This document shows, one piece after another, positions 3,089-30,913 of a DNA stretch of 32,000 nt (positions within the stretch are counted from its first letter, which is position 1; the number at the start of each line of letters is the position of its first letter). The notes under the pieces were generated by a model, which ran no database searches, was not told the origin of the DNA, and saw only the letters and a program-made list of their open reading frames with translations. The position numbers and the translations under genes were made by a program. The stretch covers positions 70,335 to 102,334 of the forward strand of contig JBPFEG010000056.1 in NCBI GenBank assembly GCA_051061015.1, in the 5' to 3' direction. Source of the DNA: Methylomicrobium sp. GTDB lineage: Bacteria > Pseudomonadota > Gammaproteobacteria > Methylococcales > Methylomonadaceae.

Positions 3089-3092
3089 AAAT

Positions 3093-3126
3093 CCCGACTG
3101 ACTCTTACCAATCAGCCGGGTTTCTC
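3093..3126 (+). terminator. hairpin terminator after alpA
   Basis: cccgactga (3093-3101) / tcagccggg (3112-3120), one mismatch, followed by tttctc. Confidence 0.45.
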
Positions 3127-3216
3127 ATAGTCAAATCAAAGTTATGCGTTTAAACAGCAAGCGTATTCTATCCGATATTGACAACTGATGCACCCGGCGA
3201 AAACTGGAACTTTGCC

Positions 3217-11592: not shown

Positions 11593-11975
11593 TTAGGGTT
11601 TAACCACAAGTTCCCGCACTTTGTATTCGTAATAGGTAGACGGGGCAATCGGCAGTTGCGGGCAAACCGACTCGACCTCGTGTGCTATCTGCTGCGCGTC
11701 TATAAAGGCCGCCATAACTTCGGTCGGCGGCCCCCTGTTTCGCCTGGGCGACAAAAGCCGCGGCTTAGCGCAATAGATCACTTGTGCCCCATGGGTATTG
11801 GCCCGTTTAAGCTCCCGATTCTCGTGTTCAAGCTCCTTCAGCCGATCCTGGTCAGCACTTGGGGTTCCGCTGCGTTTCCCCTGATTTTTTTTATTTTGAC
11901 TCACCCAACGCCGTAGGGTTTCCGCTGTACAGATTGCAGACCATGGCGATGAATACTGACCTTATTGATCAAATA
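11593..11975 (-). pseudogene. IS3-family transposase remnant (end of OrfA + first ~35 aa of OrfB only)
   Basis: ...AETLRRWVSQN..., LKELEHENRELKRAN, then ...AFIDAQQ...VESVCPQLPIAPSTYYEYK match the IS3 OrfA/OrfB junction. No DDE domain follows. Coordinates approximate. Confidence 0.7.
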
Positions 11976-12605: not shown

Positions 12606-13817
12606 ATGAAGGGAATTATGGATACCGAGAAAAAGAAACTTACGAAAAAAATTGTAGATGAAGCAACCTATGTTGGAGATGCACACAGGGGCGAGCGACA
12701 CGTTATTTGGGATACGGAATTATCCGGCTTTGGCCTTCGAGTTTACCCTACCGGTAAGAAAGCTTTCATTTTGAGCTATCGCCATAATGGGCGAAAGCGA
12801 CTCATTACGCTTGGACAATATGGCTCAATTACACCAGATCAAGCGCGCATCGAGGCCAAAAAGCATCATGTTGAGATTATTCAAGGTAGAGATCCACTGG
12901 AAGAACGTCAAAAGGCACGGTCCGGCGACACCATCAAAGATCTGTGTGTAGCCTATATCGAACGACATGCCAGCAAAAAAAAATCCGCAAAAGATGATAT
13001 TCGTAGAATTGAAAGACACATCGTACCAGCCTGGGGATCGTTAAAAGCCAATGCGATCAAAAGAGCCGATGTAGCCGCCCTGCATTCTAAGATCGGCAAA
13101 AATAACGGTCAATATGAAGCCAACCGAGTTCTTGCTCTCATCTCAAAAATGTTCTCATTGGCTGAGTTATGGGGCATTGTAGATGAAGGACATTCAAATC
13201 CGGCTCGCGGTGTCGAAAAATTCAAGGAAGAGAAACGCGACCGCTACGTTACGCCGGAAGAAATGCCCAAACTGATCAAAGCCATACAGAACGAACGGAA
13301 TGAATTTGCTCGTTATGGAATTTGGCTCTATTTGCTGACCGGATTACGTAAGGAAGAATTATTACAAGCGCAATGGGACGATATTGATTATGGCCGTAAC
13401 GAAATCAAGATCAAAGAAACCAAAAAAGGCAATAAGCACTATGTGCCCTTGTCGGCGTTCGCTCGCGAACTTTTAGATAATATAACAAGAATTGAGGGAA
13501 ATCCTTTCATCATAGTCGGTAAAAATCCAGGTGCGCATTTGGTTAACATCGATAAGCCTTGGCAACGGGTTAGGAAAGCCGCAGGGATCGAAGACGTTCG
13601 GATCCATGACTTGAGGAGAACAGTCGGCAGTTGGCTAGCTCAGGCTGGCAATAGCCTACATTTGATCGGACGGGTTTTGAATCACTCGAATACTTCAACG
13701 ACCGCAATTTATGCGCGATTTGGACAAGATAGCGTAAGGGAGGCTCTTGATCGTCATGGGGAACAAATTTTAGCAACAGCTGGAGTGACACAAAACTCTG
13801 AAATTATTTCTATCTAA
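12606..13817 (+). CDS. int: tyrosine integrase (DUF4102 N-terminal domain type)
   Basis: 403 aa. HVIWDTELSGFGLRVYPTGKKAFILSYRHNGRKRLITLGQYG (DUF4102 pattern). VRIHDLRRTVGSWLAQAG...LNHSNTSTTAIYARF (R, H-x-x-R, H, Y). Confidence 0.92.
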   Translation: MKGIMDTEKKKLTKKIVDEATYVGDAHRGERHVIWDTELSGFGLRVYPTGKKAFILSYRHNGRKRLITLGQYGSITPDQARIEAKKHHVEIIQGRDPLEERQKARSGDTIKDLCVAYIERHASKKKSAKDDIRRIERHIVPAWGSLKANAIKRADVAALHSKIGKNNGQYEANRVLALISKMFSLAELWGIVDEGHSNPARGVEKFKEEKRDRYVTPEEMPKLIKAIQNERNEFARYGIWLYLLTGLRKEELLQAQWDDIDYGRNEIKIKETKKGNKHYVPLSAFARELLDNITRIEGNPFIIVGKNPGAHLVNIDKPWQRVRKAAGIEDVRIHDLRRTVGSWLAQAGNSLHLIGRVLNHSNTSTTAIYARFGQDSVREALDRHGEQILATAGVTQNSEIISI

Positions 13818-14801: not shown

Positions 14802-15641
14802 CTAATCAAATCCTCCATCGCAGAACCATTCGCTCTGCACGAATGCTTCAAAGGTCACTGTCCGCCAACCGTTGAGCCGGGCTTGCCGGCAGCTATTTGC
14901 GCGGTCTTTCATCTCACGCCGAACAAGCTCGCTTCCGCCTAATTCGTGAATCGATCGCAGCTGGTGGCGAATGTTCAAAAGCTCATCGGCCGCTTCAGCT
15001 GCATACAAGGTCCCAAGGTTTAGCACCCGGAAGTGCAACGCCACGCGGGATGCCAAGACGTCATCCCAATGATCAGGGGCTTCTACATAAAACCGGAGTG
15101 CGGCCGGGCTTCCCTCAATAACTTCGGCATACAACCACCGATCTTCTTGAATATTGTCGTAATAAGGGTGGAGAGTTTCCTCACTCGCATTCGTGGGAAC
15201 GCTCGCCAGCTTGGATTTATTGCAATCAGTGCATGCGGGCACTAGGTTCAACGGGACGACAGCAAGGGCTGGATAGTGCGTTTTTGGCAAGTGATGATCC
15301 AACGTCGACACTGTGCGTTGGCCACACAAGGGACACTTACCTTGGGGTGCGGAATTTATGAGTTCGTCGTACGCCCCTCGGCCCGGCGCGCCCTTTTTGG
15401 CCATCCTTTGTTTATAGACAGCTTCCATCTCCGCCTTCGTCACGATGCCGCCGACGACATCGTGTTTTACGATTCGATAAAGGCGATTCGTCGATGAGAG
15501 GTTATCGAACTCCTCAGACGCCGTAACAACGTGGTCGGTGACAGAGACCAACCGTTGTTTTAGGTTCTGATCGCGAATACGGCTGATGCAGGTCTCGAAC
15601 ACATCTCTAGCGACAAGGTTGGGCCGGTTCATCTTGATCAT
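14802..15641 (-). CDS. ptuB: HNH endonuclease, Septu PtuB-like
   Basis: 279 aa. CPLCGQRTVSTLDHHLPKTHYPALAVVPLNLVPACTDCNKSK is CxxC...DH...N...CxxCN (HNH). ATGA overlap with the upstream ATPase. Confidence 0.7.
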   Translation of the reverse strand: MIKMNRPNLVARDVFETCISRIRDQNLKQRLVSVTDHVVTASEEFDNLSSTNRLYRIVKHDVVGGIVTKAEMEAVYKQRMAKKGAPGRGAYDELINSAPQGKCPLCGQRTVSTLDHHLPKTHYPALAVVPLNLVPACTDCNKSKLASVPTNASEETLHPYYDNIQEDRWLYAEVIEGSPAALRFYVEAPDHWDDVLASRVALHFRVLNLGTLYAAEAADELLNIRHQLRSIHELGGSELVRREMKDRANSCRQARLNGWRTVTFEAFVQSEWFCDGGFD

Positions 15642-17191
15642 GCGCCTGTTCCACGGTTTTCGCGGTTTGCAATCAACGCACGAACAATCGCCCGCGCCTC
15701 CCCGCCCAGCTCGCTATTGAACTTCTCCAGCACAGCTTGGAAGTTGTCGTCTTCGTCAATAGCTTCGCGGAGCAGATGATGGAAACCAGCGTGGGTCACT
15801 TCAAGCCCGAATACTTCTCTCGTCAAGACGCCAACGTTCTCACCGAACGTCTCGATTTCCGGACGTTCGACCTGAACGCTTCTACCGCTTCGCCTTACTT
15901 TCCACGCACAACTGGATGGTACCTCCTGCAGAACAACGGGTGAATGCGTGGCAATGATCGCAACACCGTTGCGATTGATGAGTAAGTCAGACAAAGCTCG
16001 GACGAATGCCGACAACAATGGTGGATGAAGATGCGCTTCCGGCTCGTCAAGTAACACCAACGTCCGTTCTTCTACAGTCTCAACGAGCTTGGTTATCGTC
16101 AACAACACGATCTTATGTCCGGAACTCAGGTCCCCGAACAGCTTCTTGGCCATTGTCTTGAGCTCCTCGTCATCGTGCGCTTCATCGGCAAGCAACGCGA
16201 CATCGGCGGCGCGGAAGATCGGATCTGCCTCGAGCATCTTCAATGCGCGACGCCATCGCACAAGGCGTGCCCCTTGGCTGCAGATGAGCACGCTCGCCCC
16301 AAAATCTATGGACAGGCGGACAGGGGACTTCGGCGCAAGTGGCTTTCCTTCTTGCGTCGTCCCTGCTCGTTTCAACCCGATATATGCGCATGGCAAGCCT
16401 TCCGACTTGTTGCGCCGATTGGGAAGCGGCTCGAAGGGATCAAATGCGCTGAAAGTCACCGAAACCAGGTTTGCGAAGAGGTCGCCATCCTCATCTCCTA
16501 CTGCCTCGAATGCCCCGACCTCGTCCCGGTTCGGCCTTTTATCGACAAGCGAACGGGACATGTTGTTGAGAAGATGGGTTTTGCCCACGCCATTGCGCCC
16601 GATCAGGACATGGATGTTTGTTGGTGGCATGGACTCGGGTTCAACGACGAAGGACAGCTTGACCGGATCTGACTTAGAGCGACTGGACTTGGGCGTGGTG
16701 TAGGTGAACTTGTACCTCGACAGGCGCACCCCGCCTTTCGCCAGTCGCGAGAACTGCCCTTGTACTGTCGCGCGTGTTACCGAGCGGAGCAGAGACACGC
16801 CGGTGACTTTCTCGTCGAGAGCGCGTATAAATCGATCCTGATCGAGCGCCAGGTCACGCAGATCACGCAGAATCCGGTCGCGCAGTTCTGGCCCCAACTC
16901 GTTGAGTTTATCGTAGTAGCTATCGTCTTGCCCCAGCGAAAAGAACTCCTCTCCGAGTTCGTCGAATTCCTCTGGAATGCTCGGCCGTCGCTGGCCAACT
17001 TTCATCCCTAGCTGACCGATCTTCACTTCACCAGCACGGAATTCTTCCCCATGCTGATCGAAGACGATGAGCACGTACATCGTGTTGTAGGTGAACCAGT
17101 CATCCCAATTGTCCGTCAACAAATAAGCCTTGGACCGCGCTCCGGCCGGCACGCGCCTACCGTGTGGCAATACCGTAAAGAATTTTGACAT
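15638..17191 (-). CDS. ptuA: ABC/AAA_15-AAA_21-type ATPase, Septu PtuA-like
   Basis: 517 aa. Walker A IGRNGVGKTHLL, Walker B LVLLDEPEAHLHP, ATHSP. An approximately 190-aa N-terminal extra domain. Paired with the HNH gene as in Septu. Confidence 0.7.
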   Translation of the reverse strand: MSKFFTVLPHGRRVPAGARSKAYLLTDNWDDWFTYNTMYVLIVFDQHGEEFRAGEVKIGQLGMKVGQRRPSIPEEFDELGEEFFSLGQDDSYYDKLNELGPELRDRILRDLRDLALDQDRFIRALDEKVTGVSLLRSVTRATVQGQFSRLAKGGVRLSRYKFTYTTPKSSRSKSDPVKLSFVVEPESMPPTNIHVLIGRNGVGKTHLLNNMSRSLVDKRPNRDEVGAFEAVGDEDGDLFANLVSVTFSAFDPFEPLPNRRNKSEGLPCAYIGLKRAGTTQEGKPLAPKSPVRLSIDFGASVLICSQGARLVRWRRALKMLEADPIFRAADVALLADEAHDDEELKTMAKKLFGDLSSGHKIVLLTITKLVETVEERTLVLLDEPEAHLHPPLLSAFVRALSDLLINRNGVAIIATHSPVVLQEVPSSCAWKVRRSGRSVQVERPEIETFGENVGVLTREVFGLEVTHAGFHHLLREAIDEDDNFQAVLEKFNSELGGEARAIVRALIANRENRGTGA

Positions 17192-17911
17192 CTGCGTACC
17201 TCCTCATTGCACTGTCAGGTGCAAAAGAACAAACTTTGAATTTATGTAACCAATAGCATAATCGGAACATAGAATAGCCGGGAATAGCCAACTCATGGCC
17301 CGATCGCGAGGTCTGTAGTCACAGACGAGCTGGCAGCAAACGGGCTTAACCAATGACGGCTCGAGAGGGTAAGCGCTCCGGCATTCCATCTTCGGATCGG
17401 CGTTTCGCATGAACACTTTTACTGCACTTCGATGGGCAGATGTCCACAGGCGAGCATCGGAACATCCGGTATCGACTAAGGGCAAGGGTCCACGCACCGT
17501 CTGATATGTAAAGCGGAAAGTTACGAGGAACCGGTCATGGCCGGGAGTGTCAGTTCGAGTATCTCGGAAGCGGACAGTCCAAAACAGCGTTGTTCGGGAC
17601 CGCGGTCTCCGTCCGCTCAGGTCGAGAAGTGTTCAGTTTAATCGCGGCTACGCAGGCTGCAATTTTGCATTAACCAATATGCTAACTCGCAGCCATAATT
17701 TATTCGGGTAGTCCAGGTGCAATCTGCCATCGTGTCAAGCACGTCAAATACCTTTGGCAAATCTTCGATTTACGCTGCTCAGGTTTCTCAAGCAGTTTAG
17801 GTTACTCTCAGAAAACGCTATCTATCGGAGCACCATCCGTCCACCATCCTCGAAGTTAGCAGCCAAAAAGCTGGAAACAATGAACTGATTTTTTTGGCCT
17901 AGTCCAGATAT

Positions 17912-18841
17912 TTAGAGTGTATGCTCCTCTTCCAATGACTTCTTTTCACGCAACCTCTCCAACAGAGTAGGTTTGTCACATCGCTCCACTATGTATAACT
18001 GCTTTGCCTGCTCCAACAGATCACCAACCAGTGGACCGGGGGCGATATCGAAGTATTCAATAATGTCTTTACCAGTTACCGGAGGTATGCTTTTGTTTTC
18101 TGAAAGCGCAGCGTCTTCTATTAATTTCCTGGCCTCAGTTTTGAAGTCAAATTCTGCGTCATAAATTTCTAAAACCCTTGCCCAATCTGAGTAATATTTT
18201 TTGCGTAGACGTATTGCATCCATTTCGGTACGCCCTATGTCTTGAAGTACCTCAGGAATGATTTCATCAAAAAGATGAGGAGGATAATATCGTCTAATCC
18301 TTTGCGCCCATTGTCCACAAATCATATCTCTGTTTTCGTCTCCTTCGATCTTCCTTACGCAATCTGTTAACACCTCAAGAAATGCCACTGCTTCACCGAG
18401 CAAATGAATTAATAAGGGCTGCCAATGCTCTTCCTCCGAAGGAAAAGAAGTTCCACATCCCTGCCTGAACCATATTTGACACGTTTGCACGACTTGTTTA
18501 TCGTGAATGGCTTCTAAGTCGAGGTTATGTACCAGGAAGGTTCTGAGATTTCTCACAATTTTATAATGCTCGGCATGATATCCGTTACATTCTAACTGAT
18601 ACACTTCCAAATATTTTAGAAGGAAGCTAACCCCGATTTTACCTGCTTCGTAGTAAAAGCCATAAAGCCAAGAAATAGACCTAATGAAACCAAGCTCGGC
18701 CGGCGAAAATTTCGGCTGGTTTAACGTCATGCTTTCGAAGACTCTTTCAATTCCGGTGATCGGGTAAACAAGCCCGTTTAATTCATCGCGGAGTCCAAAG
18801 ATGCGATACATATAATTTTCCGGTGTCATCATTATTGGCAC
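17912..18841 (-). CDS. hypothetical protein with HEPN-like Rx4H motif and CCA-enzyme-like C-terminal helical motif; partner of the 1142-aa protein
   Basis: 309 aa, starts 6 nt after the stop of the upstream gene (GTG 18841; ATGs at 18832 and 18829). IVRNLRTFLVHNLD (R100-x4-H105, nt 18527-18553). C-terminus PVTGKDIIEYFDIAPGPLVGDLLEQAKQLY resembles the G.DL...G..PGP.iG.iL motif of nucleotidyltransferase/HD-protein C-termini. No family recognised with certainty. Confidence 0.7.
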   Translation of the reverse strand: MPIMMTPENYMYRIFGLRDELNGLVYPITGIERVFESMTLNQPKFSPAELGFIRSISWLYGFYYEAGKIGVSFLLKYLEVYQLECNGYHAEHYKIVRNLRTFLVHNLDLEAIHDKQVVQTCQIWFRQGCGTSFPSEEEHWQPLLIHLLGEAVAFLEVLTDCVRKIEGDENRDMICGQWAQRIRRYYPPHLFDEIIPEVLQDIGRTEMDAIRLRKKYYSDWARVLEIYDAEFDFKTEARKLIEDAALSENKSIPPVTGKDIIEYFDIAPGPLVGDLLEQAKQLYIVERCDKPTLLERLREKKSLEEEHTL

Positions 18842-18847
18842 TCGCCA

Positions 18848-21800
18848 CTATGATTTGCTATGGTAACTCGGGTCGGCAACCGGACCGATATAATTAAATG
18901 CGATACAGAAGTTGTTGAGCGCTTGGCCTTTCCTTAAATCCCCCAATCCAAAATCTCTAGGAAAGAAATTAATTTTTTCTCGAATGCCTTCGACAAAGAC
19001 TTGTCCTTTAGCACCATCTTCCGCTACCCAGTCAACTGTACCGCTGAATAGAGTTGCTGTTCCGTCAGGATTTGATGAGACGTAACTTTTTGCGATGCGA
19101 CGACGGCCAGTAACTGAATCGGATATTCGTTGCAAATCCTTCCAAATCTCGTTCGCGTCGTGATAATAGCCTAAACTCCATGTGCCAATTGCTCGAAGAT
19201 AACGGTTCATTGGGGTCTGGTAAATCTCATCTAACGACATGAGACGATCTAAAAGCGAAATTACATATGTCCAGTCTTTTGAGTTAAACGGTAGCAACTG
19301 ACGTTCACCTCCAAAAATCGGTTTTTGCGTCTTCATCAACCACCAATAGCGCAGCAGTAAGAACAAACAACGCCCGTCCGACTCTATGTTGGTATAGTTA
19401 TTCTGTAGGTACTCCACAGCAGCGGAAATGCATTTTAGAACCGTCGGAGTTATAAGAGCAGAACCAACTTCCTCTTTCGCGATCATTAAAGCATTGAGAT
19501 AATAACCCGCTCGAGATCCTATCGCTTCAAGCTTGTCAAGTGCGTCCTGCTTAAGAGTTTCATCTTGCAATAGGTTTCCAAATTCAGCACGTCTCCGGTT
19601 GAAAATCTCCTTATCCCGCATACTCATGGACTCTTGATCGCACGATTCAAACATACTGAGGAGATCAACAATAACATCCAGGCGACTTGCATCATCAATT
19701 CGAGCTCCGATGAGTATCTCTTTAGTACTCCAAGAAATCACATCAATCGAAAATAAATCTTCAGGCTGAAAAGTGCGCGCCTGGTAAGCGTATCGCCTAG
19801 CCTCATTGAAATTATCCATAACATCTGAGGAATCACTTCCTTCTCGCAATAACTCGCGGACCTTCGTGCCAAAGGTCGAGGCGAGTTCGACAAGCAGCAT
19901 GGACCGAAGTCTCCGTGCTCTAGAGTCAGATGGAAGTGTCGTTAATGCATTTTTTAATATATCGGTGGCGCGGTTTAGCAGACTTAGCCTTTTGTCGATA
20001 GCTGTTTCAACCACTTGAGTCGCCACAACAGCCTCGCGGAGTAAGGAGGCTTCCTGAAGCATAATCCTAGGGTTCTCCACACCGCGCTCCAGGCGCAATT
20101 TGGCGAGACAAGAAGCAATATCTTCATAGTAGGAGGAGTACAGCTTTTGCTCCGGCCCATTCGGCCCCAGATTCCGAAGCAGGTCAGTTGCAAACTGTAT
20201 CTGCGAATTTTCAATACGGTCCTCTGACTCGTCGATCTCAATCAAGAGTTTCTTCGCAAACTCGATTTCCAGCCGCGGCCCCCCTAGTCGGAGTTGGCAT
20301 ATAAGCTTTGCTTCAAGCGGATGCCTTGCGCCTATAAATATGTTACCCTGGCTATCCGCATACCAACGGAAGATATCGACACTTTCAAAAATTTTATGGA
20401 AATTCGCGATTCGCGAATGTCCAAGTGTTCTAATTACCAGTTCAATGGGCACTTTCAAACCAAAGCGTCCGGGAACCATAATGAGTCCAACCAGTTCTTC
20501 AGTTGGACTAAATATTTCACGGCCTACCTCTTTTTTACCCTCTGGAAGAACCTCGAATTTACTGAGGATCCCTGCCTTCTGAAACGCGGCTGCAAGCGTC
20601 CCTCCTACAAACTCAGGCTCTAATTGTCCAGCCTTCTGTTTTAACATCAATTCGGCTGCGCTTGTTTCGCGTTGCAAGCCGTACTTTACTTGTCCACGGG
20701 TTTCGGGCAACAATCGATACAAAGCCACGAGAAAGGTCGTATCCTTCTTCTGGAGAATCTCCTCAAACCGATCACCCAAGGACGGCTCAAACTGACTCAT
20801 AAGATCTTTGAACCGTTCTGCTTCGATATCGCTGAGATTCGAGGGGGCCAATATTAAAAATCGCTGATCCGCATCGTGCATCTCAAGCTTATAGGTACTG
20901 CCCACGACGATTACATTCCGCCCCCGTCCGAGAAGATTTTTTAGGAGAGCAGTGTATTGGTCAATATGGACCATACCGTCCCAGATTATCACAGTCGCTG
21001 CGAAACCAGTATCGTCAGCCCATTTACAAAACTGGTCGAGATCTGAAGCTATTGGCCCTTGGGGTCTCCGCTCGATAAAGAGGACTGCGTATTTTTTTTC
21101 ACTCCTGATGCGATAAGCTAGCGCACCTAAAGCGACGCTTTTCCCTGTTCCCGTCTGCCCGTGCAAAATTATCGGATCATTGCCGGCCCCCTTAGTCCTT
21201 AGTCGTGACTGAACTAGGTGAAATAGATCACTTTCATAATCTCTCTCTAATGAGAATCCCGCTGCATAAGCGCCCCAAACAGGCTTGGTGCCAGAGTCAG
21301 CTAAAAAATTACGGAAGGCGATGTAACGCCCCTCATCCGATTGAATTTTTGCACACTCTAACTTAGCGTCCTCAAGAATTATTGCAGATCGATTTGTCTG
21401 TATCCATAGCTGATTTGGCACCTCAATTTCCTTGTCACCAAGTGATAAAAAATGCCCCTCTTTTTGAAGCTCTTTTCTTACATCGAAACTCAAAACACCT
21501 GAGGAATACCCTTCGTTTAAAACAGAAGCCAAGCTTTGCGCGTGAAGAACCACTTGTCCGCTATTTACCAATCTCTTGATCAAAGGATCGCTTTGAAGCA
21601 AATCAGTTGCACTAAAGAAATGGACTTGCCCCTTCTCCAATGCTAGAAGAACGGTTGCGAGTTCTCTCGATCCTAACCAGTCGTTCTTAGGTTGATAACC
21701 TTCGAGAAATAGCATGCCGAATGGTGTTACTTGTTCACTTAGGCGAGATAGTAAAATCGTGGCATCAGACGAACGTCGGATAAGGTCGATTTCGTTTAAG

Positions 21801-22276
21801 GGGGCACGCTCGTCTTCTTCCTCACGCTCTATGCATCCAAAGAGATAAGTGATATGCAAATTAGTACGGCTTCTAGGATCTGGCGAAAAGAATTTTTTCG
21901 AGAAAATTGGCTGCACATCTCGCCAATCTGTCCGAAAAGCTCGCGTCAATTGTGTGTCAATTGCAGACGAGTAAACTCCACTCCATGGCATTTTGGAGAC
22001 GATTTCTAACCATTTGGGCTCCACTAAACGACGTGACGCTTCGCTTATCCATGCACGAGCACTATGCTCATCAGCGAATTCGGTTTGCTCTAGCAGAACC
22101 TTATACGATTCGACTGACGACTTTTCCGAACTATTTTGCGGTAAATATTTAGATGATATGCTTGTGAGTAAGGGATCAATTCCGTTGTCAAGCTTTAGGT
22201 AATCTTGCCCCAAGAAAAGAAATGACGGTCGATCTGAAGCTAGATGCGAGAATATAGGTTGTAATTCTTTGATCAC
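18848..22276 (-). CDS. large multidomain NTPase: degenerate SIR2_2-like N-terminal domain + P-loop (STAND-like) NTPase + helical repeats + C-terminal cold-shock-like domain
   Basis: 1142 aa with a GTG start (GAGAG 9 nt upstream). SIR2_2-like motif series: LFLGQDY, WSGVYSSAIDTQLTRAF, ITYLFGCI, LFLEGYQPKNDWL. Walker A ILHGQTGTGKSV (K379, nt 21140-21142), Walker B-like ATVIIWDG. Long alpha-helical C-terminal half. Tail GTVDWVAEDGAKGQVFVEG...INFFPRDFG...LRKGQALNNFCIAFNYIGPVA is CSD-like. Confidence 0.75.
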   Translation of the reverse strand: MIKELQPIFSHLASDRPSFLFLGQDYLKLDNGIDPLLTSISSKYLPQNSSEKSSVESYKVLLEQTEFADEHSARAWISEASRRLVEPKWLEIVSKMPWSGVYSSAIDTQLTRAFRTDWRDVQPIFSKKFFSPDPRSRTNLHITYLFGCIEREEEDERAPLNEIDLIRRSSDATILLSRLSEQVTPFGMLFLEGYQPKNDWLGSRELATVLLALEKGQVHFFSATDLLQSDPLIKRLVNSGQVVLHAQSLASVLNEGYSSGVLSFDVRKELQKEGHFLSLGDKEIEVPNQLWIQTNRSAIILEDAKLECAKIQSDEGRYIAFRNFLADSGTKPVWGAYAAGFSLERDYESDLFHLVQSRLRTKGAGNDPIILHGQTGTGKSVALGALAYRIRSEKKYAVLFIERRPQGPIASDLDQFCKWADDTGFAATVIIWDGMVHIDQYTALLKNLLGRGRNVIVVGSTYKLEMHDADQRFLILAPSNLSDIEAERFKDLMSQFEPSLGDRFEEILQKKDTTFLVALYRLLPETRGQVKYGLQRETSAAELMLKQKAGQLEPEFVGGTLAAAFQKAGILSKFEVLPEGKKEVGREIFSPTEELVGLIMVPGRFGLKVPIELVIRTLGHSRIANFHKIFESVDIFRWYADSQGNIFIGARHPLEAKLICQLRLGGPRLEIEFAKKLLIEIDESEDRIENSQIQFATDLLRNLGPNGPEQKLYSSYYEDIASCLAKLRLERGVENPRIMLQEASLLREAVVATQVVETAIDKRLSLLNRATDILKNALTTLPSDSRARRLRSMLLVELASTFGTKVRELLREGSDSSDVMDNFNEARRYAYQARTFQPEDLFSIDVISWSTKEILIGARIDDASRLDVIVDLLSMFESCDQESMSMRDKEIFNRRRAEFGNLLQDETLKQDALDKLEAIGSRAGYYLNALMIAKEEVGSALITPTVLKCISAAVEYLQNNYTNIESDGRCLFLLLRYWWLMKTQKPIFGGERQLLPFNSKDWTYVISLLDRLMSLDEIYQTPMNRYLRAIGTWSLGYYHDANEIWKDLQRISDSVTGRRRIAKSYVSSNPDGTATLFSGTVDWVAEDGAKGQVFVEGIREKINFFPRDFGLGDLRKGQALNNFCIAFNYIGPVADPSYHSKS

Positions 22277-22578
22277 GAAAAATCTCTCTTATATCAATTC
22301 TTGAAGGTGTGCCGTACCGGCTATTCCCTACCTTAAACTCGGTAAGTCGAAATGTATTTGGGTACAATAAAATTATTTACCCTTCGCTGCTTCCAAGGTT
22401 TGTCATAGATTTCTTAATATATCAAAATTTGGAGTAAGGAGGGCTTCCGATTTTAGCGTTTCATTTGCTCTCTGTTCACAGAAGGTAACTCGACTCAGAA
22501 AATCATAATCCAGCCTTCGATGTGGGCATTTTAATGCCTACCTCGAGAATTGCTCCAGAATTTATGTTTCAATTCGAT

Positions 22579-22893
22579 CTAACACTTCACACTCATCAAT
22601 TCTTTCCAATCGGTCGCATAACGTTTCAAAATCCGTTCTACCTTCGGCTTCTATAACTGGTCGAAAGCAGTCTCAGCAATGCATGTGCTCTTGGGAAAGC
22701 GCCGATTGATTTGGTCTAAAGCCTGCATGAGATTGTCTCGATCATCCGCATTACACGCTGCAAACTCAAAAACATCGGCTTGATCCGGCAGCTTGGCAGA
22801 CTGAATCTGGCTAAGTTGAACACCGCATTTTCGATAACGGTAACCAGGCTTGAAAAATGCCTTGAGCAAAAGGCAGAACTTCCTGGGTTTTTA
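22579..22893 (-). pseudogene. umuC: umuC (Y-family DNA polymerase V) 3'-terminal remnant with internal nonsense codon
   Basis: LLLKAFFKPGYRYRKCGVQLSQI...DVFEF...LMQALDQINRRFPK...AETAFDQL*KPKVERILKRYATDWKELMSVKC* matches the UmuC C-terminus (..G.RY.KAGV.L..., LSPRYTT.W.EL..V). TAG at 22651-22653 sits where W is expected. About 300 N-terminal codons are missing. Confidence 0.7.
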
Positions 22894-23283
22894 TTCTCTT
22901 TTTGTTTCCTTTTATTTTGTAGGCTGAGCTAGACAACCTGCAAAGAGCCTGAGGTTGAGCTTATGAGGCATCGAGACGACAACTCCCTATTGTTCATATA
23001 GCGGCAACGTTTGCGCTCATCAAATAAATTTCTTGAGCAAGGACTTAACCTTTTGGGATTATTTTTTTCGACAAAGTCAAAAATATCCAAAACCATGGGA
23101 GGTCGGCCACGATCTCGATATATTCCAGTTAAATATCTTTTAACTAAATTACCCTAAAAGGTGAATTATTGACCAACTGAAACACTAGGTTTTTAATTTC
23201 ATATTTTGACCTATGAAAAACAACCAGTTAACCTAATAACTCACCTATTACTACGGAGGTATTGCTTGAAAACTCATGGGGAA

Positions 23284-23496
23284 ATGCGGCAGATTCTGCC
23301 CGAAAAACACTATACCGAAACAGAGGCGGCCGACTGCCTGGGGCTCTCCAAAAAAACGATGCAAGCCTGGCGCATTCGGGGATGCGGCCCTCGTTTCGTC
23401 AAGATGGGGCGGGCTGTTCGCTATCCTGCTTCGGCGCTGGTCGAATATCAGGCTTCGCTGTCGGTCCAGCAGTCTACCTCGGAGACAGCGGCATGA
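23284..23496 (+). CDS. excisionase/AlpA-like helix-turn-helix DNA-binding protein
   Basis: YTETEAADCLGLSKKTMQAWRIRGCGPRFVKMGRAVRYPASALVEY is the HTH_17/excisionase pattern. First ATG is at 23284 (track start 23206 is TTG). Confidence 0.75.
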   Translation: MRQILPEKHYTETEAADCLGLSKKTMQAWRIRGCGPRFVKMGRAVRYPASALVEYQASLSVQQSTSETAA

Positions 23497-23684
23497 ACGA
23501 AAATCAAACTATGAGTTTGATGATGGAAGTTTCTTTGGTTTTATCGAGTACGATAACGATATTGCATTTGGTAAGGACGAATCTGTCCCAATTGAATAAT
23601 ACAAATGATGCTATAAAAGCGATCGGAGTAGCTGAGTCAATGCTTGATCGCATTGAGGAGGATGTTGACGAGTTTTTGGGTTAA
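23493..23684 (+). CDS. small hypothetical protein (63 aa)
   Basis: ATGA overlap with the HTH gene stop. MNENQTMSLMMEVSLVLSSTITILHLV... is in frame with track ORF 23262-23684. Hairpin follows at 23695-23727. Confidence 0.4.
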   Translation: MNENQTMSLMMEVSLVLSSTITILHLVRTNLSQLNNTNDAIKAIGVAESMLDRIEEDVDEFLG

Positions 23685-23782
23685 CTAAAGATAAAAACCC
23701 GGACCGTTTGCGGCGTGTGCCGGGTTTCCATGATTCTTTTGGGTTAAGAATATGTATTTAGCATTCATAGATTAACCCAAAA
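23674..23782. repeat. 11-mer TTTTGGGTTAA x3 (two direct, one inverted) upstream of the replication operon
   Basis: ttttgggttaa at 23674-23684 and 23737-23747. Inverted ttaacccaaaa at 23772-23782. Related ttaaccttttggg at 23045-23057. Confidence 0.45.
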
Positions 23783-23812
23783 GGTTAACTTTCACAAGAG
23801 TTATGGGGATTT

Positions 23813-24151
23813 ATGAAGATAAGAAAACCGCCCTATGCCGCTAGGCTAGGGCTTAAGGATGGCTCGTGCCTAATAATTTGCACTGGAACGGGCGCATGGG
23901 AACGTGCAAAGTCGACTACTTGGTATAAAAACTGTAAGGTCGCACTACCGTATGGCGAAGATCCTGCACTGTTTGACTGGCAGTTTGTGTGTGGCCATGA
24001 CCTAGTGGTTGGCGGCTTCGGAGTCCTGGAGCCGATTGACTCGATTGCACGGCTTGGCAGCTTCTTGCTGGCGGCAGGGGCAAAGCTGATAGTTTATGCC
24101 CCCGAGCATGGCCCGATAATTCGGATCGATGCGCACCAGGAGGCATCATGA
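23813..24151 (+). CDS. hypothetical protein preceding the helicase (replication accessory?)
   Basis: 112 aa, ATGA overlap with the helicase gene, GGGG upstream of the ATG. No family recognised. Confidence 0.6.
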   Translation: MKIRKPPYAARLGLKDGSCLIICTGTGAWERAKSTTWYKNCKVALPYGEDPALFDWQFVCGHDLVVGGFGVLEPIDSIARLGSFLLAAGAKLIVYAPEHGPIIRIDAHQEAS

Positions 24152-25824
24152 CAGAATGGATTATGACTGAACCCGGTGTCATGCTCGTCGATATTCCTGA
24201 GCTTGCCGTAAATGATCCCATCATTTCAAGCGAGAATAAAAACCTCGACATTAGCGACACTATCAGCACTGACGCTGACTCAAGCAGTTCTGACTCAGCA
24301 CAAGCAACAGCGCAAAATGATAAAAAAGCCAAAGACAACAAGCTAACCGATAGCCGGCTGGCGGAAAAAGTGGCGGATGTATTGCGGGATATCATTGCGA
24401 TAGATGAAACAACTGGCGAGTGGTTCATGTGCAAAAACGGCATTTGGCAACCTATTGGAAATGTCAGAGCCACCAAGATCATCAATAAGTCGCTTCATGC
24501 CTTTTTGCCGGAAGGCTTCAGCAAGGCAAGATTGAACGCTATTGAAGGATTTTTGAAACTTTATTTGTCTCTGGAAAAGTGGGAGTCTAAGAAAACCTTA
24601 CTACCCTTGCAAAACGGCGTTCTTGATACAGACACGATGACGCTTCTGCCCTACTCACCCGAGCATAAGTTCAACTGGCAACTGCCTTATGAGTATGATC
24701 CCCTGGCAGAAATCAAAATTATCAATCAGTGGCTCTGGGAGGTTACTAATCAGGATATCGAGATCATCAATATCGTTCGTGCCTTTTTCAAAATTACTAT
24801 GGTCGGAGGCGAGGTTCAGAAATTCCTCGAAATCATAGGGCCAGGCGGTACGGGCAAATCGACATTGATCAGACTCTTGATCATGCTGGTCGGTGAAGCC
24901 AATCATACAGCGACTGACTTGAAGAATCTCGAGCAGAATCGCTTTGAAGCCGCCACCCTGTATGGGAAACGTCTTGCGGTCATTTCTGATTCGAGCAGGT
25001 ACGGCGGAGAAGTCAGCGTGTTGAAGGCAATCACAGGCGGCGACCCCGTACGGCACGAGCGCAAGAATCAACAGCAGAACGGCGCTTTTGTTTATTGCGG
25101 CACTGTCGTTATTGCGTCGAATGAAGCGATTCAATCGACCGATTACAGCAGCGGCCTGGCTCGGCGCCGGATGCCGATAGCTTTCGTTCGAAAAGTGACC
25201 GATGAAGACAAAGCCAAATGGCGCTCATTCGGAGGCATCGAAAAAGCGATGCAGGCTGAGTTGCCAGGTTTACTGAATTGGATACTGGCAATGACCGATG
25301 CCGAAGTCAATGACTGCCTGAGCATTATCAACGGTACTTTGAACAAATCACAGCGCGAACACTTGATCGAAACCAACAAGCTTGCCGCGTGGATCGATGA
25401 CAATTTGATCGTAAAAGAAAACAATGTCCTTTATGTTGGCGCCAGCACGAGTGGGCAAAAAGATCCACGTGCAGTCGATCATGACTGCAATACCAAGCTG
25501 TATCCCAATTATTTGCGCTGGTGCGGCGAAAATGGCGTTCAGGCCATTGCGGTTCAACGCTTCTCAAACAATCTCGTTGACATTGCTGAGCATTGCAAAT
25601 TACCTGTGAAGGCAATCGGTAGGGACAGTAACGGCCGAAGAGTTGCCGGTTTCAAGATCAGAACCATCAGCGATGGTGCAACGGCAACCCCAATAACGCA
25701 AACCTTGTTGAATGCCGTGCAATGTCAAGTCCATGCCGATACCCATAGCCTTGAATCCTGCGTAAGTGCTGATAGTGCTGAAGCTGTCGCTGAAAACTCA
25801 TTGCCAGATATGGAGGTATTTTAG
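24148..25824 (+). CDS. phage/plasmid primase P4-family C-terminal region: D5_N + SF3 helicase
   Basis: 558 aa. Walker A IIGPGGTGKSTLIRL. LPLQNGVLDT...LLPYSPEHKF...YEYDP (D5_N-type). Walker B AVISDS. No obvious Toprim/AEP primase motif. Acidic low-complexity N-terminus. Confidence 0.85.
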   Translation: MTEWIMTEPGVMLVDIPELAVNDPIISSENKNLDISDTISTDADSSSSDSAQATAQNDKKAKDNKLTDSRLAEKVADVLRDIIAIDETTGEWFMCKNGIWQPIGNVRATKIINKSLHAFLPEGFSKARLNAIEGFLKLYLSLEKWESKKTLLPLQNGVLDTDTMTLLPYSPEHKFNWQLPYEYDPLAEIKIINQWLWEVTNQDIEIINIVRAFFKITMVGGEVQKFLEIIGPGGTGKSTLIRLLIMLVGEANHTATDLKNLEQNRFEAATLYGKRLAVISDSSRYGGEVSVLKAITGGDPVRHERKNQQQNGAFVYCGTVVIASNEAIQSTDYSSGLARRRMPIAFVRKVTDEDKAKWRSFGGIEKAMQAELPGLLNWILAMTDAEVNDCLSIINGTLNKSQREHLIETNKLAAWIDDNLIVKENNVLYVGASTSGQKDPRAVDHDCNTKLYPNYLRWCGENGVQAIAVQRFSNNLVDIAEHCKLPVKAIGRDSNGRRVAGFKIRTISDGATATPITQTLLNAVQCQVHADTHSLESCVSADSAEAVAENSLPDMEVF

Positions 25825-26604: not shown

Positions 26605-27321
26605 TCAATAGTCCCAGACTTCATGCCGAACTGGTAACTGATTCAGTTGTTCCCGGTACCTCTGCCAGTTCGGCATAAAGCGATCCATCAGTGCGACGAA
26701 GCGCGCATTGTGCGTTGGCTCTAGCAGGTGTGCTAATTCATGCACGACGATATATTCGAGGCATTCGGGCGGCTTTTTGGCTAATTCGGTATTGAGGCGG
26801 ACGCTGCGATTGATCGGGTTGCAGCTGCCCCACTTCGTCTTCATGCGCTGCACGAAAAACGCCCCCACTTTGACGCCGATCAGCGGCTCCCAGCGGGCAA
26901 TTAAATCGGCGGCGGCCGCCTTGAGTTGTTCGCGGTACCAGCCTTCCACCATCGCCTGCTTTTTTTCTTCATCGGTTCCCGGTCGGACTCGCAACACCAG
27001 TGCGTTGTGCTTTAGTTCGATTCCCGGTGCGGCGTTGCCTTCCACGACTTTCAGCAGATAGTGTTTCCCCCACACGTAGTGGCTTTCGCGGTCCAGATAT
27101 TCGCGCGGAGTCTCGCGGTCCTGGCCGCGCAGTTTATCTTGTTGCTGCTTAATCCAGCCCAGTTTAGAAATGGCGAAGACACGGACAGTATCGAGGTTCA
27201 TGCGGGTCGGCGCCGAGATGCGGACCTTGCCGTCGGGCGGATAGACGCTGAGATGGATGTTTTTAATGTCCTTGAACACGACGTCCACCGTGAGGTTGCC
27301 CAAGTTGATTTGGGTGGCCAT
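26605..27321 (-). CDS. YgjP/DUF45-type zinc metallopeptidase (often annotated as M48-family), coupled to hsdR
   Basis: 238 aa. KWGSCNP...I.LN..L...P...LEYIVVHELAHLLEPTHNARF has HExxH in the DUF45 context. Its start shares one nt with the hsdR stop (TGATG). Confidence 0.85.
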   Translation of the reverse strand: MATQINLGNLTVDVVFKDIKNIHLSVYPPDGKVRISAPTRMNLDTVRVFAISKLGWIKQQQDKLRGQDRETPREYLDRESHYVWGKHYLLKVVEGNAAPGIELKHNALVLRVRPGTDEEKKQAMVEGWYREQLKAAAADLIARWEPLIGVKVGAFFVQRMKTKWGSCNPINRSVRLNTELAKKPPECLEYIVVHELAHLLEPTHNARFVALMDRFMPNWQRYREQLNQLPVRHEVWDY

Positions 27322-30300
27322 CAGTACTCAAGTTGGGCTTTGACAATCAGGAAAATACGCTCGACTTCGGCGATATCCTGTAAAACGCCATACAACGCGG
27401 CCTTGATAATTTGCTCGCGCGCCTGGACGCCACGCCAACCATCGGGACGGACCTGTTTAATGGTTTCGTCAATCTTTAGGGTTAGCGCCTCATTTTGGTC
27501 CAGGTTATTGTACAGCGCGCGTTTTCCCGGGGTATCCAGTTGCTCGGGGGTATCCTCGCTTTTACTCGCTTCAACTTTCTTCGCGACTTCGGCAATCCGC
27601 TTCAAGTACTCTTCATACTCAATCGCTTTGGCTTTGCGTGCCGCGATGATTTCGTCGAGCAGTGCCGACATCTTTTCGAAAAACGCCGGGTCGTTCAGAT
27701 GCTCCTTGATGATCTTGCGGCGGACGTTGTTCTCGATGGTTTCGGCGATCGCATTCTTATTGCCCTTGAGCCCGCCTAATTGCTTATTGATTGCTTCGGC
27801 AATGCCGGTTTTCACGATCAACTCCAGCAACGGCAGGTCGTCGAACGGCGAAATCTTGCGCGGCTCGTCGGCCTGGATATAGGTATCGATCAGATGCCGC
27901 ATGTCAGCTTCGTAGGCTTTCAGATCGAGGGTTTCACCGCTGGCCTTGCGGATGATTTCGCGGATGGCTAAATAATGTTCGAGCTTCTGCTTGATGCGGC
28001 CGATCTCAGTGTTACTGTAACCGGCAGGCGCCATCTCATCGGCGATCGTCGCGTAAGCGCGGACCAGGGCTGCCGTCGCCTTATAGAGCGCGGTGCGTTG
28101 CGGCTCCCGTTCTTCCAGATCGGAAGGCATTTCGGTATTGCCGCAAAAATAATGGATATGTTCCAGCTCGCCTTTCGGTGGCTTCACCGGTTCGCACAGC
28201 AGCGCGATGGCTTCCAATGCCTGGTCGAGCCGCTCCTTGCCCTTCTGCAAACGGTCATGCAACAACACATCCGGATCGGCGCCGCCGGCGCTGCGGTCCA
28301 GTTCCGAGGTGTACACCGAAATGGCGTTTTCGACTTTTTTAAATAAGTCCTTATAGTCGACGATGTAACCGAAATCCTTGTCCTCCCCGTCCAGTCGGTT
28401 GGTGCGGCAGATGGCCTGGAACAGCCCGTGGTCCTGCATTGATTTGTCGATATAAAGGTAGGTGCAGGGCGGCGCATCGAATCCGGTCAGCAGCTTATCC
28501 ACCACAACCAGCAGCTTCATATTGGCCGGCTCCTTCGTGAACAAGGCTTTCGCCTGTTCCTCATAGGTTTCGGTTTTCGTCATCCCCGGTTTCGCGGTGA
28601 TGTCTTTCAGCAGGTCGGTGTAGGTGTTGTAGATGAACTGCTTATCGGTGTCGGTATTCGCGCCTGTTTCTTCCTTGGTCACATCCTGCGCCTGCGGATT
28701 ATAGGATGTGATTAAGGCGCACTTGCCCTTGAATAACGTTTTCTGAAAGAGCGTTAAATATTTGCAGGCTTCATAGATGCTGGAGGCGACCAGAATCGCA
28801 TTGCCGCGCGCGCTGGATAGGCGCGGTTTGACGCTGAAATCGAAGATGATGTCTTCCACCACCCGCTCCATGCGCGAGCGCGAACTGAGCACCTTCTGCA
28901 TCGTGCCCCATTGCTTTTTCAGCTCGTCCTTCTGCCAGTCATTCAAGCCCTTGGTCTTGGCTTCGAACCAGGCATCGATCTTGTCCACCGAGCCGAGCTT
29001 TTGATCGATGTCGCGTGCCTCATAAACCAGATCCAGTACCACGCCATCCTCGACCGCCTCGCCGAATTTATAGGTATGGATGTAGCCACCAAAGACTTCC
29101 AAACTGGTCGCCTTGTCTTTCTTCAATAACGGCGTGCCGGTGAAACCGATGAACACCGCATTCGGCAGCATCGCCTTCATCACCCGGTGCAGCTTGCCGC
29201 TTTGGGTGCGGTGACACTCGTCCACGAACACAAAAACTTCGCCGACTGCCGGGCTGGGCTGTGATTCCAGTTCTTTAATGAAGGCGTCGAAATCGTCCAC
29301 ATCCTTCCTGCCGAACTTATGGACCAGCGAACATAACAGCCGAGGCGTCGCCTGGCCGAGCTGACTCATCAAGTCGCGGCCGCTCTGGGTGCGTTTGATC
29401 GCTTCGCCCGCTTCGTTGAAGACGCGCTCGATCTGTTTATCCAATTCGTCGCGGTCGGTAATGAGCGCGACCCGGGCATGCGGGTTATTTTCCAGGATCC
29501 ACTTGGCCAACAACACCATCACGATGCTCTTGCCGCTGCCTTGGGTATGCCAAATAATGCCTCCCTGACGCCGACGTACATAGTCCTGCGCCGCCTTAAT
29601 CCCGAAATACTGATGCACGCGCGGCAGCTTCTTGACGCCGCTATCGAACAGCACAAAGTCGTGCATCAGTTCGATAAGGCGGCGTTTCTCGCACAGCTTG
29701 AGTAGATATTTGTCCAGTTTATAGCGGCTGTTGTCCTCTTCGTCCTCTTTCCACTTTAGGAAATATTTCTCTGGCGTACCGATGGTGCCGTATTGCAAGC
29801 CTTCCGAATCGTTACCGGCGAAAACGAACTGCACCGTGCTGAAAAAACCCGCATTGAATTCCGGCTGCTGGTTGGAAAGGTTTTGCCGGATGCCGTCGCC
29901 GATTGAAACCCGGCTATTCTTGAGTTCCAGCAGGCCGACCGCAATGCCGTTCACATACAGGACGATATCCGGCCGTCGTTCGTGATTGCCCTTGAGCGTG
30001 ACTTCCTCGGCAATCGCGAAGTCGTTTTTGTCCGGTTCTGTCCAGTTGATCAGGTGGACGGTTTCAGTGGCCTTACCCGCTTCGGTTTTGACCGGGACCC
30101 CGTAGCGGAGCAGTTTATAAACGGCTTGATTATTGTGGTACAGGTTACGGCTGTGATTGTCAGCTTCGGCACGCAGCTTGTGCAGTGCGCTGCCGATTTG
30201 CGCTGGGCTGTAGCCGCTTTTGTCCAGGTAGGCGGAGAGCAAGCATTCCTCGATGGGGCTGTTGCCGTTGCGATCGGTCCAATCGCCGAGATAGCGGTAA

Positions 30301-30371: not shown

Positions 30372-30913
30372 TGATATCCCTCCCAGTATTTTTCGATCGC
30401 CCATAGTGGAGCATCGGCTGGCAAGACATGCCTAACGAGCTCTATTACAGCTTGGTAGGTTTTCGCGTCATATTTGGACCAGCGGATTTTATCGAAAGCT
30501 TGCCATTTGCTTTTGCACTTCCCTATATCTTCCTGTGCTAATTTTTGTAGTAATTGGCTATCAATCGGAGGATGTAGACATATAACTCGTCGATCTGTAC
30601 TACAGCCACCACAGACGAAACGGCTTTTAAGGTAGCAGTTGATAAGTTTTGCTGCTACGCCATGCGTAAAACTTTTACCTTGCTCTTCGGCAGCTTTAAT
30701 TATTTTAATCCGCCATTGCTCGTGGATTTGGTCAATGAGCTCCGGTTCCGGCAATTGCTCAATCGTAAAAGAAGCATTAAAACCACCCTTCTCAAGAATC
30801 TTTACACCAACTTCCACATCAAAGCGACACAATGGACTTGATCTTGCAGCAGTTGATGCCGCCCATGCGGAGAAGCGATGACTGTGTTCTTCAATTGAGT
30901 AAATGGATGTCAT
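30368..30913 (-). CDS. hypothetical 181-aa protein embedded between hsdS and hsdR
   Basis: ATGA overlaps at both ends (30910-30913 and 30368-30371). Sequence HRFSAWAASTAA..., FTHGVAAKLINCYLKSRFVCGGC...ICLHPPID. No family recognised. Confidence 0.7.
   Translation of the reverse strand: MTSIYSIEEHSHRFSAWAASTAARSSPLCRFDVEVGVKILEKGGFNASFTIEQLPEPELIDQIHEQWRIKIIKAAEEQGKSFTHGVAAKLINCYLKSRFVCGGCSTDRRVICLHPPIDSQLLQKLAQEDIGKCKSKWQAFDKIRWSKYDAKTYQAVIELVRHVLPADAPLWAIEKYWEGYQ

Follow-up and report, generated by a model that had tools for sequence, protein, structure and literature searches.

A paired SAMD9-like STAND NTPase and small helical protein in Methylomicrobium, probably a two-gene variant of the SAMD9-like Avs class

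In a contig of Methylomicrobium sp. (GenBank assembly GCA_051061015.1, contig JBPFEG010000056.1), two neighboring genes encode a protein of 1142 amino acids and a protein of about 300 amino acids, and the question they raise is whether they form an undescribed defense system and, if so, what each of them contributes. The stretch of DNA analyzed, referred to as the window, is 32,000 nucleotides (nt) long (positions 70,335 to 102,334 of the contig, forward strand), and the two genes occupy positions 17912 to 22276 of it. An earlier, sequence-only reading had proposed a two-gene defense system composed of a giant protein with SIR2-like, P-loop, helical-repeat and cold-shock-like parts and a partner with a HEPN motif. 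The analysis described here indicates that the pair probably represents, within the SAMD9-like Avs class, a new variant with two genes; the large protein belongs to a known class, and the pair and the partner family look like the undescribed part. The two genes are as follows.

18848..22276, minus strand: large gene, open reading frame (ORF) of 1142 amino acids with a GTG start, the same start as in the NCBI model (NCBI protein P0001)
17912..18841, minus strand: partner gene, ORF of 309 amino acids from the GTG at 18841; the NCBI model (P0121) has 306 amino acids from the ATG at 18832

Both ORFs were confirmed at the lengths and coordinates first proposed for them. For the partner, the ATG at 18832 (306 amino acids) is more likely to be the start than the GTG at 18841 (309 amino acids), since it fits the N-termini of the homologs and follows a GGCGAG Shine-Dalgarno-like element located 8 nt upstream. 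The separation of 6 nt originally given for the two genes therefore holds for the GTG start and becomes, more probably, 15 nt with the ATG. The 306-residue numbering of the partner is used below.

Regarding the association of the two genes, 55 loci were compiled, 52 from a scan of one genome per species (26-82% identity in the large protein) and three from additional look-ups; they fall into 31 clusters at 60% identity. Co-occurrence of the two homologs had been proposed as a check on the pair, and at 54 of the 55 loci the partner hidden Markov model recognizes a homolog as the next gene downstream, on the same strand; at the remaining locus the contig breaks off within the large gene. In the reverse direction, the partner homologs P0133, P0129, P0142 and P0173 are all located behind a large-gene homolog. 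The gap between the genes ranges from -40 to +23 nt at 45 intact loci, with a mode of -4 nt (an ATGA overlap, 21 of the 45), and between pairs of loci the identity of one protein rises with that of the other (Spearman 0.69). The coupling of a small gene with an Rx4H motif to the large one, as suggested from the sequence, is thus seen both in this pairing and in the conservation of the motif described below. The loci are spread over Gamma-, Beta- and Alphaproteobacteria, Desulfobacteria, Myxococcota, the Bacillus group, Lachnospiraceae, Acidobacteriota, Dehalococcoidia, metagenome-assembled genomes (MAGs) of the cyanobacterial lineage, Saprospiraceae, Emticicia, Latescibacterota and a Methanosarcinaceae archaeon. 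At the DNA level, the window is 80% identical to a Sideroxydans MAG over 17946-22299 only, corresponding to the two genes, and the similarity stops at the cassette edges. By these comparisons, the two genes are one unit, a horizontally mobile operon. A third conserved gene was sought and rejected: none of the candidates, namely the 97-amino-acid ORF at 17204-17497, the ORFs at 23262-24151 and the primase, recurs beside the pair at other loci. Frameshifted copies, apparently in decay, occur at five loci (L024, L048, L052, L053 and L055), where the large gene is split into two to five ORFs; two of them, L052 and L055, have a fragmented or degraded partner as well. The archaeal copy is found in a MAG (L008), and the cassette is common in gut Lachnospiraceae (L025-L027 and L044); a partner cluster named from Anaerobutyricum soehngenii (P0322) occurs on 160 contigs. 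Considering the archaeal and gut copies, the cassette is not confined to environmental Proteobacteria.

The large protein was examined with homologs from a word-based search (121 clusters, 120 of them listed, with identity down to 20%) and with an AlphaFold2 model built on 72 homolog sequences (mean predicted local distance difference test score, pLDDT, of 82.5). From the N- to the C-terminus, the model consists of a Rossmann-like domain, a P-loop alpha/beta domain, a helical and winged-helix part, an array of helix pairs approximately 350 residues long and a beta barrel of five strands. The following features were assigned.

21482..22234, minus strand: SIR2-like Rossmann domain, amino acids ~15-265, catalytically degenerate; Foldseek matches to the SIR2 domains of DSR2, ThsA and KomC
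20162..21271, minus strand: NOD module, amino acids ~336-705, composed of nucleotide-binding, helical, winged-helix and helical domains; from Pfam PF25199 and the AlphaFold2 model
21137..21160, minus strand: Walker A motif GQTGTGKS (pattern GxxGxGK[ST]), amino acids 373-380, with K379 at 21140-21142; G373, G378 and K379 invariant in 72 of 72 relatives
20975..20995, minus strand: Walker B-like strand TVIIWDG, amino acids 428-434; D433 kept in 71 and W432 in 65 of the 72 relatives
19103..20161, minus strand: tetratricopeptide repeat (TPR)-like helical repeats, amino acids ~706-1058, the presumed sensor; paired helices at 710-1055 in the model
18863..19069, minus strand: C-terminal OB/cold-shock-like beta barrel, amino acids ~1070-1138; five strands at 1077-1136 in the model

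The Pfam family nSTAND_NTPase5 (PF25199) matches amino acids 329-467 with 45.9 bits against a cutoff of 34 (E 6.7e-12), and in the model residues 369-477 form a P-loop alpha/beta core, with the winged-helix hairpins falling at 582-650. The protein is accordingly a STAND NTPase, modeled with a NOD, helical and winged-helix domains and a C-terminal repeat sensor. The domain order read from the sequence alone (SIR2-like at the N-terminus, then the NTPase with its P-loop, a winged helix, repeats of helices and a beta tail) is supported at each step by AlphaFold2 and Foldseek, the cold-shock-like tail being an OB fold; the sensor logic of STAND/Avs proteins gains from the Pfam match above the cutoff, and K379, which had been singled out for mutation, is the invariant lysine of Walker A. 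Query coverage is at least 84% in 115 of the 120 listed relatives, which at that coverage have 955-1275 amino acids, and no extra or N-terminal effector domain was found among the relatives scanned with Pfam. The protein begins directly with the SIR2-like domain (first strand at amino acids 18-22 of the model), and no Pfam match to the AlbA_2 tRNase domain was obtained.

Comparison of structures, one of the checks proposed in advance, placed the large protein first beside human SAMD9 and then beside a bacterial Avs protein. The top Foldseek matches in the PDB are six human SAMD9 cryo-electron microscopy (cryo-EM) chains (E 1.5e-19, query-normalized TM-score 0.44-0.46, ~1300 aligned columns), followed by EfAvs5, a SIR2-STAND protein (9jap_A, E 5.9e-15), and then by a STAND-TPR protein, DSR2, ThsA and KomC. 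The repeat region matches the STAND-TPR protein 6mfv, IFIT1 and other TPR proteins, and in the global alignment the C-terminal barrel takes the position of the SAMD9 OB domain. The SAMD9 core, comprising SIR2-like, NOD, TPR and OB domains, was defined by Mekhedov et al. (PMC5445408) and has a cryo-EM structure (PMC13600222); contacts for activation are mediated by its SIR2-like and OB domains, and the output is tRNA cleavage (PMC13600222, PMC10246899). Judging from the model, the large protein is a prokaryotic counterpart of this core. It shares the ordered core with SAMD9/SAMD9L, the human antiviral STAND protein with a tRNA-Phe anticodon nuclease, which is its best full-length structural match, whereas it has neither the SAM nor the AlbA_2 tRNase domain, and its presumed effector is a separate, unrelated protein. 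The likeness was detected in structure and not in sequence, for a search of the PDB sequences, SAMD9 chains included, with the 72-sequence profile gave no SAMD9 match at E <= 1. In the case of Avs9, convergence with SAMD9 has been argued by Legrand et al. (PMC12680541).

Among bacterial proteins, the named SAMD9-like STANDs are Avs5 with a SIR2, Avs6 with a PNP and Avs9 with an AlbA_2 effector (PMC12680541, PMC13581612). Avs5 (AVAST type 5) is a single-gene system with an nSTAND3 NOD and an active SIR2 NADase effector (PMC11897194, PMC12931631), and its sensor clusters with that of SAMD9 (PMC13581612). Similar to EfAvs5 and PaAvs5, the present protein combines on one chain a SIR2 domain (here SIR2-like) at the N-terminus with a STAND NTPase and a repeat sensor, and EfAvs5 is the second-best structural match overall and the best bacterial one. 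It differs from Avs5 in that the catalytic Asn and His are absent, the NOD is of the nSTAND5 and not the nSTAND3 type, and the system has two genes, with the partner present at 54 of 55 loci. The PADLOC Avs models gave no match to the protein at E <= 0.01. The Pfam scan likewise gave no match to PF20720 (nSTAND3), the profile of the Avs5 NOD, for the protein itself; the divergent relatives P0117 and P0094 do match it, and the nSTAND5 family and the Avs5-type nSTAND3 clade are therefore related. The suspicion that the protein is a divergent SIR2-STAND relative of the Avs type agrees with these matches and with the EfAvs5 hit; the SAMD9-family architecture and the already named relatives Avs5, Avs6 and Avs9 had been missed. 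Avs6 and Avs9 have a SAMD9-like core and swappable effectors as well (PMC12680541), a PNP occurring here on the partner; in both, the effector forms the N-terminal part of the STAND chain itself, whereas the candidate output of the present system is encoded in trans.

Given the resemblance of the large protein to Avs5, is its SIR2-like domain still an enzyme? The profile of the N-terminal 320 residues aligns with ThsA at E 0.47, which is weak in itself, and the alignment is supported by the Foldseek match to ThsA chain 7uxt_A (E 2e-5). It places the family TSsiD over TTNYD and yLfG over KLHG of ThsA. In the 72 relatives, the position of the catalytic Asn (column 105) is A, S or T and that of the catalytic His (column 146) is F or Y, never N or H, and an invariant GQ stands where the nucleotide-binding loop of SIR2 has GAG. 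The SIR2-like domain of the large protein is, as far as these columns indicate, no longer an enzyme, and the inactivity guessed from the single sequence thus extends to 72 of 72 aligned relatives. The SIR2-like domain of SAMD9 has been described as non-enzymatic, unable to bind NAD and forming an assembly interface with the OB domain (PMC13600222).

With the large protein apparently devoid of an effector, attention turns to the partner, for which three features were assigned.

18647..18649, minus strand: E62, acidic residue with a possible catalytic or structural role, the same in all of 85 diverse sequences
18527..18544, minus strand: conserved Rx4H motif RTFLVH, R97-H102 (R100 and H105 in the 309-residue numbering used first)
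17924..18097, minus strand: C-terminal module, amino acids ~246-303, similar to the tail of CCA-adding enzymes by profile matches, putatively tRNA- or RNA-binding

A profile search of 1.84 billion representatives revealed 717 partner clusters at 50% identity, 305 of them at E <= 1e-30, and nearly all have ~300 amino acids. Among 221 homologs with identities down to ~17%, E62 is kept in 205, R97 in 214, T98 in 209 and H102 in 215, and R97 and H102 are invariant in two further alignments (A2 and A6). The AlphaFold2 model (pLDDT 89) is all helical and contains no beta sheet. The first ~235 residues have no match in Pfam, PADLOC, NCBIfam or the PDB, and the profile search with this N-domain (A6) found no other architectures, only stand-alone proteins of ~300 amino acids. 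At the C-terminus, the partner profile matches residues 356-411 of human TRNT1 (4x4w) at E 6.4e-5, and also 8cbm and 1ou5 (E up to 4.4e-4); the Pfam family tRNA_NucTran2_2 (PF13735) matches 20 of 20 and 60 of 85 members in two sets (best E 7e-7). The tail region of CCA enzymes contacts tRNA. The last ~55 residues of the partner resemble the tail unit of class II CCA-adding enzymes such as human TRNT1 and Bacillus CCA, sharing the helix-turn P-[IV]-[TS]-G-x-D-[IL]...G-x-x-P-G-P-x-[VI]-G; the partner differs from these enzymes in having no nucleotidyltransferase head and no polymerase-beta catalytic carboxylates, and no Pfam match to a polymerase-beta-type nucleotidyltransferase head was found in it. 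The NCBI name of the Burkholderia cepacia homolog P0129 (locus L002) is "HD domain-containing protein"; an HD-domain match was not found, and the name is probably a misleading consequence of the similarity to the CCA-enzyme tail.

In defense systems, HEPN RNases act once a partner NTPase or sensor has switched them on, often against tRNA. As in the PrrC/RloC anticodon nucleases and the HEPN domains of Cas13/Csm6, an Rx4H motif is present in the all-helical partner, its R and H being strictly conserved; no HEPN Pfam profile or solved HEPN structure matched the partner, so that the likeness is at the level of the motif only. Of the HEPN-motif partner proposed at first, the motif stands, its R and H now in numbers, and a HEPN fold is putative. 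A few partners carry C-terminal additions: a PNP_UDP_1 phosphorylase domain (P0142), a TIR domain (P0173) and a LuxR/GerE helix-turn-helix (P0205). Fused partners at L059 3849-5708, L060 1053-2798 and L061 628-2373 contain PNP_UDP_1 (619 amino acids) or TIR (581 amino acids), and the PNP- and TIR-fused partners are located directly behind the large-gene homolog and retain the Rx4H motif. In P0205 and P0254 the R...H motif is lost and other C-terminal regions have been gained, the extension of P0254 (~270 amino acids) being unannotated. PNP and TIR are typical immune effector domains, and since their fusions occur on the partner, the partner is placed on the output side.

As for novelty, PADLOC (DB v2.0.0, 2023) made no significant call for either gene, which is what had been predicted for it, and the NCBIfam and PDB sequence searches returned no named system for either protein. 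For the large protein, nothing in PADLOC, NCBIfam or the PDB sequences was significant; a PADLOC mad8 match (E 0.0064, zero stretches passing) was dismissed as P-loop noise. Searches of the literature and by accession (A8ZZL7 / WP_012176500), whose scope did not take in the supplementary tables accompanying the STAND survey of 589 clades (PMC13581612) and the paper by Legrand et al., gave no description of the pair, and the partner gene is not mentioned in the Avs5, Avs6 and Avs9 papers cited above or in Mekhedov 2017 (PMC5445408). The clade of the large protein may be listed in those tables without the partner.

The surroundings of the cassette contain the following elements.

601-687: tRNA-Leu(taa) gene
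865-2118: tyrosine integrase of the tRNA-Leu element
2135-2203: int-alpA small RNA (Rfam RF02996)
3630-5174: DUF3987 protein
11641-11759, minus strand: Rfam ALIL pseudoknot, 56.6 bits against a gathering score of 50, inside the ORF at 11593-11904
12606-13817: tyrosine integrase, left border of the island
14802-17191, minus strand: Septu pair PtuA (517 amino acids) and PtuB (279 amino acids), from PADLOC and Pfam
17204-17497, minus strand: 97-amino-acid ORF between the partner and PtuA; no family match and no counterpart in related loci
24148-25824: D5_N/DUF5906 primase-helicase
26605-27321, strand opposite to the primase-helicase: YgjP-like metallopeptidase, abutting HsdR
27321-30404, strand opposite to the primase-helicase: HsdR
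30910-31965, strand opposite to the primase-helicase: HsdS specificity subunit; the window ends ~35 nt past its start

A Septu-like pair to the left and a replication module and type I restriction-modification (R-M) genes to the right had been described, and PtuA and PtuB, the primase-helicase, HsdR and HsdS bear this out; as the window stops ~35 nt past the start of HsdS, a methylase gene, if there is one, would be located beyond its end. PtuA matches PADLOC PtuA/PDC-M01A at E 1e-201 to 7e-211 and PtuB matches PDC-M01B at E 4e-114, with a weak HNH Pfam match (E 0.0023). Primase-helicases of the D5_N/DUF5906 type occur in phage satellites and integrative elements. Of the integrase-bounded island, the integrase at 12606-13817 was recovered, but it is the single bounding integrase within the window. 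The ALIL pseudoknot is an element of frameshift sites of the IS3 family of insertion sequences (IS), and its match just upstream of this integrase suggests an IS remnant at the island border. A second integrative element is inserted at the tRNA-Leu(taa) gene and spans 601-5174, so that the window holds two integrase-associated islands. Between the partner and PtuA, a stretch of 720 nt (17192-17911) contains the 97-amino-acid ORF, followed by 414 nt without an ORF of at least 80 amino acids. The G+C content is 0.42 in the partner gene and 0.455 in the large gene, against 0.535-0.557 in PtuA/PtuB on the left and 0.443 in the right flank (22277-24147). The cassette is sharply distinct in composition from its left neighbor only; the AT-richness claimed relative to both neighbors holds for the left side and not for the right. 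As the G+C content of Septu is ~10 points above that of the adjacent cassette, it points to separate acquisition of the two. Within 17100-23300, promoter-like sites are no more common than in shuffled sequence, and terminator-like sites are in slight excess only (10 against 6.2 ± 2.3 expected from shuffling); an Rfam scan gave no match inside the cassette region.

At other loci, the neighbors include an integrase, AlpA and DUF927 in Pseudomonas, a type II R-M pair and a transposase in Desulfosudis oleivorans, an integrase, AlpA and a reverse transcriptase in Telluria, and recombinases and IS elements in Rossellomorea. A scan of 125 neighboring proteins from 28 loci detected Mutator, IS21 and IS66 transposases, resolvases, and matches to AbiEii, PDC-S02, SoFic, SngA and DrmD. 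The mobile and defense-island context ascribed to the pair is thus seen in the window and at the other loci inspected.

Taken together, the pair is likely to be a two-gene Avs-type defense system. The fuller proposal, in which a horizontally mobile two-gene operon acts as an Avs-type abortive-infection system against phages with the partner as an RNase output on tRNA, is evenly poised. According to this proposal, the large protein, lacking an effector domain of its own, would be held closed at rest, and a phage-derived ligand would be recognized via its TPR/OB region. Ligand binding would open the large protein and allow it to oligomerize, and the opened form would recruit or activate the co-translated 306-residue partner, perhaps via the surfaces of the dead SIR2 and OB domains as in SAMD9. 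In the partner, E62 together with R97-T98-x3-H102 would make up a metal-independent RNase site of the HEPN kind, and the CCA-tail-like module would dock tRNA. Activation would then lead to tRNA depletion and a stop of translation, the same outcome as in SAMD9 with its fused tRNase, and the rare TIR and PNP partner variants would deplete NAD+ or ATP instead. That the output is specifically a tRNA nuclease is a tentative part of the proposal, somewhat less probable than the whole might suggest. A bolder version, in which the partner is the founder of an undescribed group of tRNA-directed nucleases (a helical E...R-T-x3-H site plus a CCA-type docking module) licensed in trans by a SAMD9-like STAND protein, is rather doubtful.

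Several points weigh against the proposal with the RNase output. The defense function, the direction of signaling, and the RNase activity and tRNA target are all inferred. The CCA-tail likeness covers only ~55 residues and lies below the curated Pfam cutoff in every member, and the whole partner chain yields only insignificant Foldseek matches, to CCA-adding enzymes. No HEPN match to the partner was obtained from Pfam on 20 and 85 homologs at a permissive E-value, from two PDB profile searches or from Foldseek. The retention of the motif in TIR- and PNP-fused partners is compatible with an adaptor and with a nuclease alike. Megablast with the cassette against complete E. coli genomes and tblastn with the partner against plasmid and phage collections returned no copy, and location in defense islands was judged on a limited set of loci (the window, the four inspected loci and the 28-locus scan) with no background-corrected statistic.

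Accepting a two-gene SAMD9-like Avs defense, the partner could still be a non-catalytic adaptor or regulator, an explanation that is unlikely and yet the strongest of the alternatives. Such a partner would attach to the STAND protein, possibly together with an RNA (tRNA or another) that serves as cofactor or guard signal, and E, R, T and H would form a binding site; its role would be either to bring in an effector (the TIR or PNP of the fused variants, in other pairs a host factor not linked to the locus) or to hold the sensor inactive. This explanation would account for the missing HEPN profile and fold, for the sole detectable homology of the partner being an RNA-binding tail module, and for the motif being kept in TIR/PNP variants, where it is not simply swapped for another effector. 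However, nearly all pairs consist of a stand-alone ~300-amino-acid partner and a dead SIR2 domain with no other recognizable effector, which would leave an adaptor without an output. Moreover, conservation of E and R-T-x3-H in 205-215 of the 221 homologs at such low identity looks more like an active site, and two of the few variants that lost the motif gained other C-terminal domains.

Alternatively, the pair might have no immune role and be a signal-transduction or RNA-metabolism module, such as stress-responsive tRNA control, riding on mobile elements. For bacterial SAMD9 homologs, generic roles in signal transduction have been proposed (Mekhedov et al., PMC5445408), metabolic genes of an ordinary kind adjoin the pair at some loci, and the absence of matches in phage and plasmid collections could be read in the same direction. 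This alternative is improbable, considering the patchy spread over distant lineages with DNA homology ending at the cassette borders, the integrases, transposases, R-M and Septu genes in the contexts, the fusion of partners to TIR and PNP, and the pseudogenization of several copies; in addition, the characterized relatives SAMD9 and Avs5 are antiviral, and Avs9, a predicted defense protein, kills cells (PMC12680541, PMC11897194). Finally, a SIR2-like domain still serving as the NADase effector as in Avs5, with the small protein as an accessory regulator or immunity factor, has in its favor EfAvs5 as the best bacterial structural match and one relative (P0094) that reaches the Pfam SIR2_2 cutoff, but it is the least probable explanation of all, an active NADase being contradicted by the catalytic-residue columns (A/S/T and F/Y at the Asn and His positions of ThsA, GQ for the GAG loop) and disfavored by the inability of the homologous SAMD9 domain to bind NAD (PMC13600222).

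Under the two-gene Avs-type reading, preferred here, the SAMD9-like Avs group of Avs5, Avs6 and Avs9 would gain an architecture of two genes and a candidate effector or adaptor family of ~300 amino acids, members of which are found in bacteria from soil, groundwater and the gut and in one archaeon. As the partners fused to TIR and PNP show, effectors in this group can be swapped on the second gene. Gain-of-function mutations in SAMD9 and SAMD9L, which are human restriction factors, lead to severe disease, and structures are only now clarifying how the two are activated. The interest of the cassette lies in the partner family and in the parallel with human SAMD9. If the bolder version with a founding family of tRNA-directed nucleases were true, the cassette would represent a split prokaryotic SAMD9 mechanism, with a dead-SIR2/OB sensor core and a tRNase output, and the SAMD9-type core would be an effector-agnostic switch driving second-protein effectors, TIR and PNP included. 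As a compact bacterial SAMD9 core with a separate small output protein, the cassette could be a tractable model for sensing and the relay of activation.

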